Notes under the pieces: generated by a model
What the model saw: only the letters and a program-made list of their open reading frames with translations
What the model was told of the DNA's origin: nothing
Databases searched by the model: none
Assembly (NCBI RefSeq): GCF_004010195.1
Contig: NC_057753.1
Span: 10,416,445-10,437,506 of the forward strand
From: Chiloscyllium plagiosum
Lineage: Eukaryota
Length of the DNA stretch: 21,062 nt
Direction: 5' to 3'
Program-made: the position numbers and the translations under genes
In this document: in pieces, positions 3,261 to 21,062 of the stretch
Layout: each line of letters starts with the position of its first letter
Numbering within the stretch: the first letter of the stretch is position 1

Positions 3261-3795
3261 TTGTTAAAGTACAGATTTGAGACGGCCCTGGGAATCCCTT
3301 GTGAACTGAACCTGTAAGCCTCTCTTGGTTTGTCCCGGAGATCGTACTCTTTGGAAGTCTGAAATAAAAAAAACCTCTTACAGACAGTTTATTTTAATTT
3401 TAGTCACTTAAAGCATAACACTGTTACTGAGAAGCTAAACTAACTGGGTTCTAATAACCCAGGCGAGTAGGATATCAGCTGTTCAAGACCCCTGGCAGGC
3501 TACTCTGCTGTACTGTCTCAAACAGGCTTCATTTATACAAAAAGTTTACAAAAAGCACTGCATGTTCTTAATTAGACAGATAACAGTAAAAGACAATAAT
3601 TCATAAGGAAGAAAAGTGAATTGACAGATCTGTGCGCACTGTGATCACTCCTACAGACCTTGAGCTATCCGTCAGGTGGGAAAAACAAATCCAGCCGAGT
3701 TAGGTATCTGCTGGTGAGATAAATTCCTATAAAGTAGTACCAGTCTAAATTAAGTGGGAGATGTCATAAGGTAACCTTGCATAGCTCACATATCT

Positions 3796-3995
3796 AGGTA
3801 AAAACAATGACTGCAGATGCTGGAAACCAGATTCTGGATTAGTGGTGCTGGAAGAGCACAGCAGTTCAGGCAGCATCCAAGGAGCTTTGAAATCGACGTT
3901 TTGGGCAAAAGCCCTTCATCAGGAATAAAAGCAATTAAAAGCAATTTATTCCTGATGAAGGGCGTTTGCCCGAAACGTCGATTTTACTGCTCCTC
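3796..3995. mobile_element. Small non-autonomous Penelope-like insertion: terminal repeat plus a partial inverted copy, with a 12-bp TSD
   Basis: GCTCACATATCT at 3784-3795 and 3996-4007. Inverted arms at ~3890-3929 and 3945-3984 each carry a hammerhead motif. Confidence 0.85.
3952..3979 (+). ncRNA. Minimal (PLE-type) hammerhead ribozyme motif, intact core
   Basis: CTGATGA A GGGC-GTTT-GCCC GAAAC GTC, with an ACGT palindrome in place of helix III. The minus-strand partner at 3895-3922 has GAAA changed to AAAA. Confidence 0.75.
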
Positions 3996-5022
3996 GCTCA
4001 CATATCTGATACACTGGTTTTACAAAATGGCTTCTTAGCAAGGAGGGCAAACATTTGACCATAAAATGACTTGCTGACAGATTGTGTCAGAATCTCTTCA
4101 ATGTTAGGTTTAGAACAATTTTAAGTTGGGAGCAGACTCTTGCTTTTTATCTTAAGCCCTGAATCATTTTGTACCTGAGGCTGAAATGTTCCCGTAAAGT
4201 TGCATTTAAACTGATTCATTAGTCTCAAATTAAACATGCTTTCTTTTCAGGGTTGTGATTCAAATTCAAATAAGACATAAGATCTGATTAGTTAGAATTG
4301 ACAGTGGGGCAGTCTGTGAAGTTTTAGAGTGGTGTGCAAGAACAGCAAGTAAGTTAAAGCTTCATCAATATTACCTTTTACAGAGTTTGCATTTCATAAC
4401 CAGTAATGGCTACTCAAAATTATCAAAGTCTCAAACATACAATTAAATTCAATCCATAGCAAGTAAGCACAAAGAGTTAATTTTCTACTGGCTTCAGCAG
4501 TCCCAGCGCTAAAATGGTCTCTCTGTCTCTCTCTCTTTCTCTCTGTGTCCTTTTGAACTCTCAAGTCAGGGACTTGTAACAGAAAAGATGTTTTTCCCTC
4601 TGTGTCTGCCTAGCTTGAAAGGGGTAATAAGAATCTGTTATAATTGATAGGATCTGACCGTCAATTACAAGGCTTTCGATAGTACCGAGTTTCATTTCAG
4701 GGTCAGAATCAAACACTGTCGTGAATTTCACAAGGGAACAGCCGTGAATGTTATCACTCGGTGTCCTGTTTACACAGATTCACTGATGTTAAGGCAAGTG
4801 TTCTTAATTGCCTTCGAGCATCCTGTTATCACTTGGTGAGAACAGATGTTTTAATCTTCTGCATAACATGGGTACCCCCTTTTTTTTCCCGGAGCCTCCT
4901 TGCCTGTCTATTTTTTAGTGTGCAGCAAATGTGTCCTATAATTCAACATTACATTTTAGTCTAAACGTTTAAAGGACAAGTTTTAAGGCTACAGACTTGC
5001 TCAGCCTCGTCTCAACCACCAA

Positions 5023-6311: not shown

Positions 6312-6952
6312 NNNNNNNNNNNNNNNNNNNNNNNNNNNNNNNNNNNNNNNNNNNNNNNNNNNNNNNNNNNNNNNNNNNNNNNNNNNNNNNNNNNNNNNNN
6401 NNNNNNNNNNNNNNNNNNNNNNNNNNNNNNNNNNNNNNNNNNNNNNNNNNNNNNNNNNNNNNNNNNNNNNNNNNNNNNNNNNNNNNNNNNNNNNNNNNNN
6501 NNNNNNNNNNNNNNNNNNNNNNNNNNNNNNNNNNNNNNNNNNNNNNNNNNNNNNNNNNNNNNNNNNNNNNNNNNNNNNNNNNNNNNNNNNNNNNNNNNNN
6601 NNNNNNNNNNNNNNNNNNNNNNNNNNNNNNNNNNNNNNNNNNNNNNNNNNNNNNNNNNNNNNNNNNNNNNNNNNNNNNNNNNNNNNNNNNNNNNNNNNNN
6701 NNNNNNNNNNNNNNNNNNNNNNNNNNNNNNNNNNNNNNNNNNNNNNNNNNNNNNNNNNNNNNNNNNNNNNNNNNNNNNNNNNNNNNNNNNNNNNNNNNNN
6801 NNNNNNNNNNNNNNNNNNNNNNNNNNNNNNNNNNNNNNNNNNNNNNNNNNNNNNNNNNNNNNNNNNNNNNNNNNNNNNNNNNNNNNNNNNNNNNNNNNNN
6901 NNNNNNNNNNNNNNNNNNNNNNNNNNNNNNNNNNNNNNNNNNNNNNNNNNNN
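6312..6952. other. Assembly gap (641 N)
   Basis: Run of N. Confidence 1.
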
Positions 6953-7022
6953 AATTTCAGTTACATCACACTGCAAATTTTTGCTATAAATTCTGTGTTA
7001 GGATCGAGCCCCCCGCTATCAC

Positions 7023-7051
7023 CTGATAAAGGAGCGTCGCTCCGAAAGCTA
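7023..7051 (+). ncRNA. Minimal hammerhead motif of a second PLE family, core mutated and probably inactive
   Basis: CAC CTGATAA A GGAGC-GTC-GCTCC GAAA GCTA GTG. It has an AGCT palindrome and a CAC/GTG helix I, but the G8-equivalent position is A. Confidence 0.6.
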
Positions 7052-7384
7052 GTGTGCTTCCAATTAAACCTGTTGGACAATAACCTGGTGTTATGTGATT
7101 TTTAACTTTGTACATTCTACAGTTGCATTATAACTAAATCATGAGCATAGCAGGTGTCGAAATAGCCCTTGTGACTTACCAAATTTTTAATTGCCCCGGT
7201 CAGTCTGTGAGGGTTATTTCGTTGAATTTTCTTTTACTCTCTAGTATTTTAAATACATTCATTTTAAGATTAAAATAAAAATAATAAAGGACGAAAAAAA
7301 CATAAAAGATTTGTTCTGCAAAATTTGGATTCATTCAAAAGGCCACACACAATGGCTTAGAAGGCCGCAGGTTCCCCACCCTTG

Positions 7385-9466: not shown

Positions 9467-9601
9467 TCCAAATTGAAACACACAGTTTCCTCCCACAGTC
9501 CAAAGATGTGCGGGTCAGGTGAATTGGCCATACTAAATTGCTGGAAATGTGTTGCTGGAAAAGCGCAGCAGGTCAGGCAGCATCCAGGGAACAGGAGAAT
9601 C

Positions 9602-9629
9602 GACGTTTCGGGCATAAGCCCTTCTTCAG
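9602..9629 (-). ncRNA. Minimal hammerhead ribozyme motif, intact core
   Basis: Minus strand reads CTGAAGA A GGGC-TTAT-GCCC GAAAC GTC. Confidence 0.75.
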
Positions 9630-9634
9630 GAACC

Positions 9635-9662
9635 CTGAAGAAGGGTTTATGCCCGAAACGTC
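9635..9662 (+). ncRNA. Minimal hammerhead ribozyme motif, intact core
   Basis: CTGAAGA A GGGT-TTAT-GCCC GAAAC GTC, with a U-G wobble closing stem II. Confidence 0.75.
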
Positions 9663-9906
9663 GATTCTCCTGTTCCCTGGATGCTGCCTGACCTGCTGCA
9701 CTTTTCCAGCAACACATTTCCAGCTCTGATCTCCAGCATCTGCAGACCTCACTTTCTCCTCATACTAAATTGCCCGTAGTGTTAGGTAAGGGGTAAATGT
9801 AGGGGTATGGGTGGTTTACGCTTCGGCGGGTCGGTGTGGACTTGTTGGGCTGAAGGGCCTGTTTCCACACTGTAAAGTAATCTAATCTAATCTCATCTAA
9901 TCTAAA

Positions 9907-12263: not shown

Positions 12264-12396
12264 AGTGGCAAAGTAGACAGGCAGGAGGCTGCAAGAACAC
12301 AGCAAGGCAGGCAGCATCAGGAGGTGGAGAAGTCGATGTTTCAGGTGTAACCCTTATTCAAGACTGGGGTGGGTGTATGGAGAGATGCAGATAAAG
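12264..12396 (-). mobile_element. PLE terminal-repeat fragment (third variant) with a degenerate hammerhead
   Basis: Minus strand reads TTGAATAAGGGTTACACCTGAAACATCGACTTCTCC...GATGCTGCCTG, similar to 9635-9710. Confidence 0.6.
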
Positions 12397-12507: not shown

Positions 12508-12603
12508 GTGAAAAAGAGTGTGGTGCTAGAAAAGCACAGCAGGTCTGGCAGCATCTGAGGAGCAGGTAAATGGACGTTTCGGGCAGAAGCCCTTCATCAG
12601 GAA
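12508..12603 (-). mobile_element. PLE terminal-repeat fragment
   Basis: Matches 3843-3925 and 9548-9632. Confidence 0.8.
12573..12600 (-). ncRNA. Minimal hammerhead ribozyme motif, intact core
   Basis: Minus strand reads CTGATGA A GGGC-TTCT-GCCC GAAAC GTC. Confidence 0.7.
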
Positions 12604-13258: not shown

Positions 13259-13577
13259 GGCGGCACGGTGGCACAGTGGTTAGCACTGCTGCCTCACAGC
13301 GCCAAAGACCTGGGCTCAATTCCCGCCTCAGGCGACTGACTGTGTGGAGTTTGCACGTTCTCCCCGTGTCTGCGTGGGTTTCCACCGGGTGCTCCGGTTT
13401 CCTCCCACAGTCCAAAGATGTGCAGGTCAGGTGAATTGGCCATGCTAAATTACCCATCGTGTTAGGTAACGGGTGAATGTAAGGGTATGGGTGGGTTACG
13501 CTTCGGCAGGTCGGTGTGGACTTGTTGGGCCGAAGGGCCTGTTTCCACACTGTAATGTAATGTAATGTAATCTAATC
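13259..13577 (+). mobile_element. Full-length HE1-type tRNA-derived SINE
   Basis: Head 'ggcggcacggtggcacagtggttagcactgctgcctcacagcgcca' with A/B-box-like motifs, V-domain-like 'gtgtggagtttgcacgttctccccgtgtctgcgtgggtttcc', LINE-like tail and (TGTAA)n end. Confidence 0.9.
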
Positions 13578-14019: not shown

Positions 14020-14682
14020 CTCTCTGTCATACACACACACCCACATACAAGTCCATGGGAGTGAATGTGTATTTGCAGGATTATATTTGCAGAGCTGAGC
14101 TGAGATGTCATTTTTTGTGATAAAACCTTAAGTTATCTCAAGAAGATGCCTTACAGGAAGTTCTGGGATTGACATATTAATGATACCTGCAACCCATTTG
14201 AAAAGATTAGATTACTTACAGTGTGGAAACAGGCCCTTCGGCCCAACAAGTCCACACTGACCCTCCGAAGAGCAACCCACCCAGACCCATTCCCCAACAT
14301 CTAACACTACAGGCAATTTAGCATGGCCAATTCACCTAACCTGCACATTTTTGGACTGTGGGAGGAAACCGGAGGAAACCCACGCAGACACGGGAAGAAT
14401 GTGCAAACTCCACACAGAGGCAGGAATTGAACCTGGGTCTCTGGTGCTGTGAGGCAGCAGTGCTAACCACTGTGCCACCATGCTGCCCTTAAAAGACTTA
14501 ACAATCCAGGTTTGTTCAATATGTCATTTCAGTGGCAGGACAGTGTAATGTTTTTTCCATAAATTCTGTGTCTTATGATATTATTCTCTGCAACCACCCA
14601 ATGAAGGAGCAGCACTCCAAAAGCTAGTGCTTCTAAATAAACCTGATGGACTATAACCTGGTGTTGTGTGATTTTTAACTTT
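14020..14682 (+). mobile_element. PLE 3' region plus terminal repeat (degenerate hammerhead 14598-14626), interrupted by a SINE
   Basis: Colinear with the reverse complement of 17640-18250. 'ccaatgaaggagcagcactccaaaagctagtgc' matches 7023-7058. Confidence 0.8.
14205..14488 (-). mobile_element. HE1-type SINE
   Basis: Reverse-complement match to 13259-13577 with small deletions. Confidence 0.9.
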
Positions 14683-16109: not shown

Positions 16110-16230
16110 GATGAAGGCCTTATGCCCGAAACATTGACTTTCCTGCTCCTTGGATTCTGCGTGACCCGTTGTGCTTTTCCAACGCCGCATTTTTCAACAC
16201 TGACTCTCCAGCGTCTGCAGTCCTCACTTT
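16110..16230 (+). mobile_element. PLE terminal-repeat fragment within the putative ZNF exon 2 (hammerhead truncated)
   Basis: 'gatgaaggccttatgcccgaaacattgactttcctgctcc...ctccagcgtctgcagtcctcacttt' matches 9637-9755. Confidence 0.8.
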
Positions 16231-16383: not shown

Positions 16384-16746
16384 ATGTGGAGTGTGAAACA
16401 GATCTACGACCTGGAAAGAGGAATTCACAGCAGGGAGGAGGTGTACACACGTTTGTGTGCAGCTGAGGCTTCAGCCATGGAGAAACTTGAGGAATCCCAC
16501 CCTGTGGAGAAACCATGGGAGTGTGGCAACTGTGGGAAAGGCTTTCGCGCCCAGTCTACCCTGGAGACTCATCAGCATAGTCACACTGGGGAGAGGCCGT
16601 TCTCCTGCCCCGTGTGCGGGAAGGCCTTCAGCGATTCCTCCACCCTGTTGAGGCACCAGTGGGTCCACTCTGGGGAGAGGCCAATCACCCGCTCTCAGTG
16701 CAGGAAGGGCTTCACCCGCTCCTCCCACCTGTGGAGGCACCAGTGA
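16384..16746 (+). CDS. Short C2H2 zinc-finger protein, truncated and probably a pseudogene
   Basis: Two intact fingers (CGNCGKGFRAQSTLETHQHSH and CPVCGKAFSDSSTLLRHQWVH) with TGERPF/SGERP linkers. The third finger has lost its first Cys and ends HQ*VH (TGA, probably from CGA). A Kozak-like gccATGG lies at 16477, and the upstream acceptor is tttttgcAG at 16088-16089. Confidence 0.6.
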   Translation: MWSVKQIYDLERGIHSREEVYTRLCAAEASAMEKLEESHPVEKPWECGNCGKGFRAQSTLETHQHSHTGERPFSCPVCGKAFSDSSTLLRHQWVHSGERPITRSQCRKGFTRSSHLWRHQ

Positions 16747-17609: not shown

Positions 17610-18362
17610 TGGAGGTGCCGATATTGGACTGAGGTGGATAAAGTTTAAAAATCACACAGCACCAGGTTTTGTTCAACAGGTTTATTTGGAAGCACTGACT
17701 TTCGGAGCTTGTTCCTTCATCAAGTAGCTGTGGTGAAAATGTGTTGCTGGAAAAGCGCAGCAGGTTAGGCAGCATCCAAGGAGCAGGAGAGTTGACTTTT
17801 CGGGCATGAGCCCTTCTTCAGGAATCCTGCTGCACAGCTCAAGTAGCTGTGGAGCAGGATTGTAAGACACAGATTATATAGCAAAAGATCACCGTGTCAT
17901 GCAACTGATAGAATATATTAAACAAACCTAGATTGCTGTTAAGTCTTTCATCTTTTAGAATGTGTTGCAGGTTTTGGTTCATTAATCCGTAAATCCCAGA
18001 ACATCTTTTAAGTCACGTTCTCAAAATGACTTAACTTTTTTTTTAAAGTCTCAGCTCAGAAAATGCATTAAAGATGTGAGGTTCGTGTCTGTCAGTGTCA
18101 CGCTCTTGACTAAGACTGGTTCTATTTCCAAAGTAGGAATTTGTAAAATATTACATGGATTGATTGCCTTTTGAGCAAAATTGAATGTATCTGCAAATAT
18201 AATTCTGCCAATACAAATTCACCCCATAGAGTTATGCGTGTGTGTGTGCACGTTTGCGTGAGAGTGCGTGGAATAGTGTTTGCATGCTTGATAAAGTGAG
18301 TGTGAGGGTGTGTAAGCCTGTGAGTGTGTGTGTGTCTGAGAAAGAGCTGTCTATGAGAGAGG
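17610..18362 (-). mobile_element. PLE terminal repeat plus 3' region (hammerhead 17696-17723 with TTGATGA)
   Basis: Matches 20010-20103 and the reverse complements of 14020-14682 and 6953-7109. GT-rich tract at 18237-18360. Confidence 0.85.
17734..17838 (-). mobile_element. Nested PLE terminal-repeat insertion with a 14-bp TSD (hammerhead 17794-17821)
   Basis: TCAAGTAGCTGTGG at 17720-17733 and 17839-17852. Minus strand reads CTGAAGA A GGGC-TCAT-GCCC GAAAA GTC. Confidence 0.85.
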
Positions 18363-20006: not shown

Positions 20007-21062
20007 ATTTGGAGATGCCGATGTTGGACTGAGGTGTACAAAGTTAAAAATCACACAACACCAGGTTATAGTCCAACAGGTTTAACTGGAAGCACACTAG
20101 CTTTTGAATACCACGATAGTTTCACTTCTTTCATGTGTAAAAAGTGAGGTAAGAGTTTTATATGAATTCATGCAGTTTTTGAGCAAAGTACAATGTAACT
20201 CTGTAAGTACAAATTCACCCCACAAAATATATGTGTGCATGTGGGTCTTTGTATCTGTGTGTGTGTGTCTGTCTGGGTTGGGGGTTGTGAGTGTGAGAGA
20301 GAATGTATATATGTGTGTAGTGAGTGTAGAGTGTCTTAAGTCTGTGAGGGGGTGCATGTATGAGTGTGGGAGTGTGTGCGCGTGTCTGGGGTGGGGGTGT
20401 GTGAGCGTCTGTGAGAGAGAGTGTCTATGTGTGTGCATGAGTGTAGAGTGGTCTAAGTCTCTGAGAGGGTGTCTGAGTGTGTCCCTGTGTATATGTGTGT
20501 CCCTGCGTATATGTGTGCCCGTGTGTGTGTATAGGAGTGTGTGTGTGTATAGAGGAGTGTCTGTGTGTGTGTATAGTCCAATGGTGGTCACCTGTAATGT
20601 GACATAAACCCAAGGTCCCGGTTGAGGCCCTCCCTATGGGTACCGAACTTAGCTATCAGCCTCTGCTCAGCCACTTTTCGCTGCTGCCTGTCCCGAAGTC
20701 CACCTTGGAGGATGGTCACCCGAAGTCGAATGTCCTGGACCACTGAAGTGTTCCCCAATTGGGAGGAAACACTCCTGACTGTTGATTGTCGTAGCCTTTG
20801 CTCGGTTTCCCCAATGTACCATGCCTCAGGGCATCCTTGCCTGCAATGTATAAGATAGACAACGTTGGCTGAGTAACATGAGTACCTGCCATGTACAAGG
20901 TGGGAGGTATCCCCACGCGTAATGGTGATATCCATGTCCACACTCTGACACATCTTGCAGCACCTACCATTACAGGGTTGTATGGCGTTGTCCTGAGAGC
21001 CGGGCAGCTTGCAATGAACAATGATTTGTTTGAGGTTTGGCGGTTGTTTAAAGGCAAGCAGT
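20007..21062 (-). mobile_element. Penelope-like element (probably Neptune-type): endonuclease ORF end, CA-rich 3' region and terminal repeat; runs off the window
   Basis: GIY-YIG ORF at 20588-21061, (GT)-rich tract at 20230-20572, and terminal repeat at 20007-20105 matching 7045-7113 and 17610-17700. Confidence 0.9.
20588..21061 (-). pseudogene. PLE ORF C-terminus: Cys-rich linker plus GIY-YIG endonuclease, with compensating deletions
   Basis: LLAFKQPPNLKQIIV...PCNGRCCKMC...YSCYSANVVYLIHCRQGCPEAWYIGETEQRLRQ...RKVAEQRLIAKFGTHREGLNRDLGF. The motif LPIGEHFSGPGHS lies in a shifted frame. Confidence 0.9.

Follow-up and report, generated by a model that had tools for sequence, protein, structure and literature searches.

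The closest described counterparts of the insertion reported here are the complex insertions of Penelope-like retroelements (PLEs), for which an inverted 5′-truncated copy, a one-sided tail of 30-40 bp, target-site duplications (TSDs) of 8-10 bp and head-to-head palindromic junctions are described (PMC3846280, PMC8557442), and inverted-copy PLE insertions are mentioned as well in PMC8969392. The available text of the first two sources does not state that the junctions sit at the hammerhead. How PLE inverted repeats form is still unsettled in the sources cited here. For the anole PLE, reverse transcription is reported to initiate at two internal sites bounding the tail, with both strands cut and extended (PMC11167929), and the R2 element is reported to form snap-back 5′ junctions on the cDNA or on the target, especially after full-length cDNA (PMC11371274). 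The pLTRs of metazoan PLEs carry minimal hammerhead motifs (min-HHR) with an extra base after A9, a G10.1-C11.1 pair and a palindromic ACGU, and single motifs of this kind are given as inactive in vitro (PMC4209133), whilst the non-LTR retrozymes are described as non-coding, hammerhead-bearing and likely PLE-derived, with same-strand tandem repeats each containing a hammerhead (bioRxiv 10.64898/2026.07.22.740005).

We examined an insertion at 3784..4007 of a 21,062-nt stretch of Chiloscyllium plagiosum DNA (the window, to which positions refer unless another record is named). It is one insertion bounded by a TSD, consists of two copies, head-to-head, of the end of a very abundant, hammerhead-bearing repeat, and most likely represents a dead-on-arrival PLE copy; the assignment to PLEs is drawn from structure, and we consider such an origin very probable. 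Its architecture is already in print. As in canonical EN+ PLE complex insertions, the inverted copy lies head-to-head at the 5′ end, one arm only carries a tail and a short filler or palindrome marks the junction, and the TSDs of this window's elements (12-14 nt) are similar in length to the 8-10 bp recorded there. Unlike those insertions, the unit is without an ORF and consists of just a 130-nt end module, and its short arm stops at +43 (arm coordinates are counted from C3 of CTGATGA), before the tail boundary; no RT or endonuclease ORF is attached to, or lies upstream of, any family copy within the window. The unit is one inverted pair, unlike the same-strand arrays of retrozymes, and the terminal inverted repeats common to family copies that would mark a MITE were not found when the 3784 element was compared with the other copies.

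Boundaries and arms of the insertion

The original prediction had described a 200-nt insert between 12-nt direct repeats, with a long minus-strand arm, a short inverted copy on the plus strand and a 10-bp tandem duplication in the spacer, and we confirm each of these. The exact 12-mer GCTCACATATCT occurs twice in the whole window, at 3784-3795 and 3996-4007 on the plus strand, with 200 nt (the insert, 3796-3995) between the copies, and the match extends no further on either side. As a control, 6,488 pairs of positions spaced 200 nt from each other (sampled every third base, slack ±5) were compared, and only four gave a match of at least 10 nt, all of them the site 3784/3996 itself, and the next best match was 9 nt.

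The long arm (3796..3936, minus strand) is the 3′ end module of what is very probably a Penelope-like family, its C3 lying at 3922, its 3′ end at 3796 (+126) and its 5′ end between 3930 and 3936 (−8 to −14), as judged from the reads across 3930 and the depth of run X21. The segment 3796..3833 of this arm is likely the tail, ca. 38 nt past the +87/+89 end class of other copies. The two arms had been thought to be joined by a spacer; the duplication does lie there, but G at 3930 is found in 5,079 of 5,487 raw reads aligned across the site, the long arm therefore reaches at least −8 and part of the supposed spacer is family sequence.

The short inverted arm (3945..3995, plus strand) has its C3 at 3952 and spans −7 to +43, a length of 51 nt, of which six positions (12%) differ from the long arm, two of these being CpG transitions. 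Past 3995 the family sequence goes on in 5,842 loose-end reads (agreement 0.9), and the junction of the short arm with the TSD exhibits a 1-nt (G) match to this continuation. At the inversion junction itself AAAAGCAATT is present twice in tandem (3927..3946), its last TT common to the short arm as a 2-nt microhomology. We rejected the idea that a second, nested insertion left this duplication as its TSD, as nothing lies between the two copies. Both arms have in common the ATGA, the TTTATTC upstream and an A at +34, where 24,479 of 26,924 aligned reads carry C; the presence of minority alleles in both arms fits one template or one source. Folding of the insertion gave a hairpin of −106.6 kcal/mol (z −13.7).

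Hammerhead motifs

The plus arm contains an intact minimal hammerhead motif (3952..3979), reading CTGATGA-A-GGGC/GTTT/GCCC-GAAA-CGTC, with a 4-bp helix II, the palindromic ACGU and a predicted cut after 3979. The minus motif (3895..3922) has AAAA in place of GAAA, as had been noticed before; the change, at 3902, is a CpG-type transition of G12 to A, and G12 is the general base of the hammerhead (PMC6155905), so that this motif is predicted dead. C3 of the long arm sits 126 nt from the 3′ end, which places the hammerhead motif near the 3′ end of the terminal repeat.

All core features of the min-HHR are present in the plus arm, namely CUGANGA and GAAA, the base between 9 and 10.1, the G10.1-C11.1 pair and the palindromic 15.2-16.2, and the likeness to the motifs in PMC4209133 extends to a core without helix III and to copies that are mostly solo. 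Helix I is weak, with three of the first four pairs formed by inspection against the 4-5 bp of the min-HHR. Other departures from the described motifs are a helix II of just 4 bp, the mutation of one core, and a pair 29 nt apart rather than ca. 100-700 bp apart as in the available text of that source. When single arms were folded the hammerhead fold was not predicted (z −0.05), and within the plus transcript folding buries the intact core in the long hairpin.

As the two cores lie on opposite strands and the minus core carries G12>A, no working dimer is expected from them, and the insertion is predicted to be without ribozyme activity. The name "double hammerhead" given to the unit therefore carries no mechanistic meaning, since it needs two cores on one strand. 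An Rfam search returned no hammerhead family at E ≤ 1; matches to miRNA precursors fell below the gathering score, were caused by the hairpin and were rejected. A family-specific core pattern gave no match in viral contigs and none in metagenome contigs.

Other family copies and the 5′ boundary

A second inverted pair, of a sister subfamily, is present at 9529..9773 (the 9540 element), flanked by a 13-nt TSD (9529-9541 and 9761-9773). Its arms start at −3 and −1, end at +87/89 and +125 and differ at 2 of 90 positions, against 6 of 51 in the 3784 element, and an uninterrupted paralog of its target repeat is found at 13397-13577. With 97 of 127 long-arm positions identical, and with its own TSD and target in the 9540 element, the claim of a second, independent insertion of a different subfamily holds. 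The shared architecture proposed for the two elements stands as regards the head-to-head arrangement and the arms that start a few nucleotides 5′ of the core, and fails as regards the short arm, which ends at +43 in one and at +87/89 in the other.

Solo copies are located at 12510..12603 (minus strand, starting at ca. −3, no TSD found), at 17720..17861 (minus strand, ca. −4, with a 14-nt TSD at 17720-33 and 17839-52) and at 16110..16230 (plus strand, starting inside the core at ca. +2, no TSD found). An older, more diverged relative with a decayed core at 12288-12370 (minus strand) was left out of the solo count. At the 5′ junction of the copy at 17734-17823, 16 nt of its own target recur in inverted orientation (17823-38 against 17846-61, 15 of 16 positions), which looks like a fold-back on the target strand and indicates that DNA fold-back occurs at 5′ junctions of this family. 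The bases upstream of the 17821 core had been considered as helix I and were rejected as such, being this same inverted copy of the target. The 17720-17861 copy is inserted into the terminal part of another hammerhead-type repeat family.

The window counts are tiny, four inverted arms and three solo copies, and within them the inverted arms of the two elements start at −8 to −14, −5 to −7, −3 and −1, whilst the solo copies holding a core start at −3, −4 and ca. +2. Since all three core-holding solo copies start there as well, the near-core boundary is a property of 5′ ends at large rather than of inversions in particular. It has exceptions: at 3948, 19,056 reads depart from the short arm (agreement 0.63 over 30 letters), so that many sister-subfamily copies run further upstream. 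At the 3′ side, family copies fall into one class ending at +87/89 (the 9540 short arm, the 17734 copy and, by eye, the 12510 copy) and a second at +125/126 (both long arms), with ca. +122 at 16230, as expected of an optional tail of 30-40 nt. The short arm of the 3784 element (+43) belongs to neither.

Copy number, target repeat and the empty site

Read depth over the terminal-repeat family reached ca. 58,000 in run X21 (1,934 million letters). The genome is 3-4 Gb in size, and from these figures we infer a family copy number of around 10^5 or more. The insertion was taken by an older multi-copy repeat, found to the left at 3300..3783 (X21 depth ca. 60-190, the aligned stretch beginning at 3300) and to the right at 4008..4531, with a depth of ca. 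60-220 over the two flanks together, and the paralog contig pieces of this target repeat that were listed carry roughly 8-18% other letters. Depth was zero over 4532-4600, where repeats were skipped.

In one X17 contig 10 letters separate 3787 from 4010, the length expected of an empty site from which the insert and one 12-mer are removed; just 5 of these 10 letters match. This was the only one of the three paralog joints listed to have the exact empty length, the other two having 12 letters against 13 and 22 expected, and several paralog pieces end at 3784-3786 or start at 4017-4018. Among the best-supported read and contig rows listed, no near-identical orthologous record was found, either empty or filled.

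Thousands of reads also gave "opposite strand" joints between 3877-3885 and 3981-3996, which we rejected as evidence of inversions because ordinary copies produce them by switching between the two arms of the query itself. A separate, recurring inverted junction joins 3919-3927 to 3961-3968 with similar filler letters, in contigs of three runs with three organism labels (depth ca. 50-530), which suggests that an inverted unit has itself been multiplied somewhere in these genomes.

Other features of the window

The 3′ part of another PLE-like element occupies 20035-21062 (minus strand), with a 157-amino-acid frame at 20588-21061 containing a YIGET motif, which we take to be GIY-YIG. A Pfam search of this frame gave no significant match. 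Its protein has 29 homologs, many of them shark proteins (54-84% identity), several with an RT domain; the best matches are from shark, and two of the three homologs scanned with Pfam match RVT_1. This protein piece belongs to a family other than that of the 3784 insertion. The element continues with a CA-rich tract and then an end piece common to 7021-7099, 14601-14672 and 17651-17725. A 120-amino-acid frame at 16384-16746 (plus strand) contains several repeats, presumably of C2H2 zinc-finger type, and is probably a gene fragment or retrocopy. An assembly gap lies at ca. 6312-6955, and the window contains 641 N.

Head-to-head pairs in metagenome contigs

Metagenome contigs were searched with a pattern of head-to-head cores at most 30 nt apart, which selects for near-core junctions. 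An estimated 2,000 or so stretches matched (extrapolated from 4 of 64 parts); the search yielded 112 loci, of which 55, from several unrelated hammerhead families, were true inverted pairs with an arm score of at least 40 (shuffled maximum 36); the other 57 failed this arm-versus-arm test and were dropped. Across the 55 pairs the core-to-core gap was flat over 2-30 nt with no peak. As the pattern itself selects near-core junctions, the pairs demonstrate that the form is widespread, not where junctions fall.

In the largest family (M1, 18 distinct loci) the shared upstream sequence ends at ca. −11 to −16, and this limit holds also in the nine loci with gaps of 19-28 nt. Ends were analysed in 30 hand-picked loci of the 55, 16 of them from M1. 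The M1 arms share sequence to between +87 and +93 in 10 of these 16. In the other six the sharing runs to between +40 and +73 (four loci), to +79 (one locus; 87 by its repeat) or to the end of the contig (one locus). A direct repeat of 8-12 or 15 nt was found in 9 of the 30 loci, at ca. +68-92 on one side and +112-136 on the other, with two more doubtful. Six loci (L010, L041, L080, L093, L097 and L104) exhibit perfect palindromic head-to-head junctions without a loop, which are hard for a simple hairpin to produce. Same-strand tandem hammerhead repeats, retrozyme-like and with units of 122 and 203 nt, respectively, occur in L035 (1165-1653) and L083 (331, 534).

Formation of the inverted unit

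On balance, the insertion probably arose from a nascent cDNA that terminated a little upstream of the hammerhead core and then folded back on itself, and for the 3784 copy we favour such a snap-back origin modestly. A PLE endonuclease would have nicked the two strands 12 nt apart within the older repeat, and reverse transcription would have started at the family tail end (+126) and run to ca. −8 to −14, the limit seen in solo copies too. The 3′ end of the cDNA may then have slipped back 10 nt, unless the duplication arose later, and would have re-annealed on its own strand via the 2-nt match and copied 49 nt, after which the folded-back cDNA would have been joined to the second nick via the 1-nt match. 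The fold-back position would be set by the point at which the cDNA ends (the 5′ terminus of the RNA, or a strong stop close to where helix I begins) rather than by ribozyme cleavage, and the fold-back likely inherits the family-wide cDNA end point. The short-arm end is variable, at +43 here and usually at +87 to +93 (the 9540 element and, among the M1 loci examined, 10 of 16), which suits DNA-templated copying. The process resembles R2 snap-back in that the 3′ end of the cDNA would prime on its own cDNA in the 3784 element, or on nearby target DNA in the 17720 element, and differs in that the R2 case, in the available text of PMC11371274, concerns another retroelement class in engineered human cells, and would apply to PLEs by analogy.

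A doubtful alternative, though the strongest of those considered, is that both nicked strands of the target serve as primers, each for a separate cDNA on PLE RNA (a second RNA, or a second terminal repeat), with both cDNAs stopping at the same 5′ boundary and their ends joined by microhomology, the second priming lying at +43 here and usually at +88. According to the available text of PMC11167929, the PAc protein cuts both strands and extends them, starts synthesis at two internal sites and is a predicted dimer. The short arm is fixed at +87 to +93 in the 9540 element and in 10 of the 16 M1 loci examined, such fixed arms ending 32-45 nt before the long arm where a TSD can be placed. Loop-free palindromic junctions such as those in L010, L080 and L093 are not obtainable from a plain hairpin, and the 12% difference between the arms of the 3784 element, which exceeds that of the 9540 element, could point to two templates instead of to age. 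Priming from both strands is thus the better account of short arms fixed at +88 and of loop-free palindromes in other elements, and perhaps also of the arm difference here. At this locus it meets a short arm that ends at +43 with a target match of just 1 nt, no 3′-end pile-up at +43 among the loose ends listed, and minority alleles common to both arms. From the sequence of one copy, a snap-back and a second priming are inseparable.

That the hammerhead fold or its cleavage directly sets the template-switch point, giving rise to a special class of inverted double-hammerhead elements, is improbable, and the ribozyme is probably not the cause of the inversion; the original prediction, which inferred a fold-back point set near the ribozyme by a reproducible template switch, is thus partly supported. 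All four inverted arms in the window do start within ca. 14 nt of C3, upstream sharing in M1 indeed goes no further than ca. −11 to −16 even where the gap is roomier (9 of 18 loci), and a structural stop by the folded motif is conceivable. The boundary is, however, common to the solo copies (3 of 3), the predicted cut lies at +27, downstream of the arm starts, and the copies keep the core. Hammerhead mutants leave PLE insertion in vitro unaltered (PMC11167929), Naiads without a hammerhead also make inverted units (PMC8557442) and opposite-strand min-HHR pairs 100-700 bp apart are on record (PMC4209133), each according to the available text, and opposed cores are unable to form a same-strand dimer. 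A fold-back DNA transposon or MITE, or an assembly palindrome, is more improbable still: the hairpin is strong and no junction-spanning read was found among the best-supported read rows listed, but the arms are unequal with ends (+126 and +43 of the same module) that do not form inverted repeats with one another, the majority of family copies are solo, the junctions of the 3784 and 9540 copies differ, and neither six differences in 51 arm positions nor a flanking 12-nt TSD is given by assembly fold-back.

The insertion itself is one worn copy among very many and is unlikely to matter. The same geometry recurs here and in unrelated metagenome families, with 5′ ends just before the core, a short arm to ca. 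+85, a long arm to ca. +120 and a TSD of 8-15 nt. A clustering of 5′ ends at the hammerhead was not found stated in the open-access literature, and the supplements of PMC4209133 and PMC11167929 may bear on it. We tentatively propose, as a possibility somewhat short of probable, that most short PLE insertions across unrelated hosts may be copied from a conserved module of ca. 130 nt in which three landmarks are fixed (a 5′ boundary ca. 12 nt upstream of the core and priming at ca. +85 and ca. +120), with inverted units arising when both ends meet at the boundary; that boundary would be the RNA start or a hard stop of reverse transcription at the start of helix I. If this is true, the origin of PLE inverted repeats would become a matter of countable, testable geometry, and the hammerhead region would gain a role other than cleavage.
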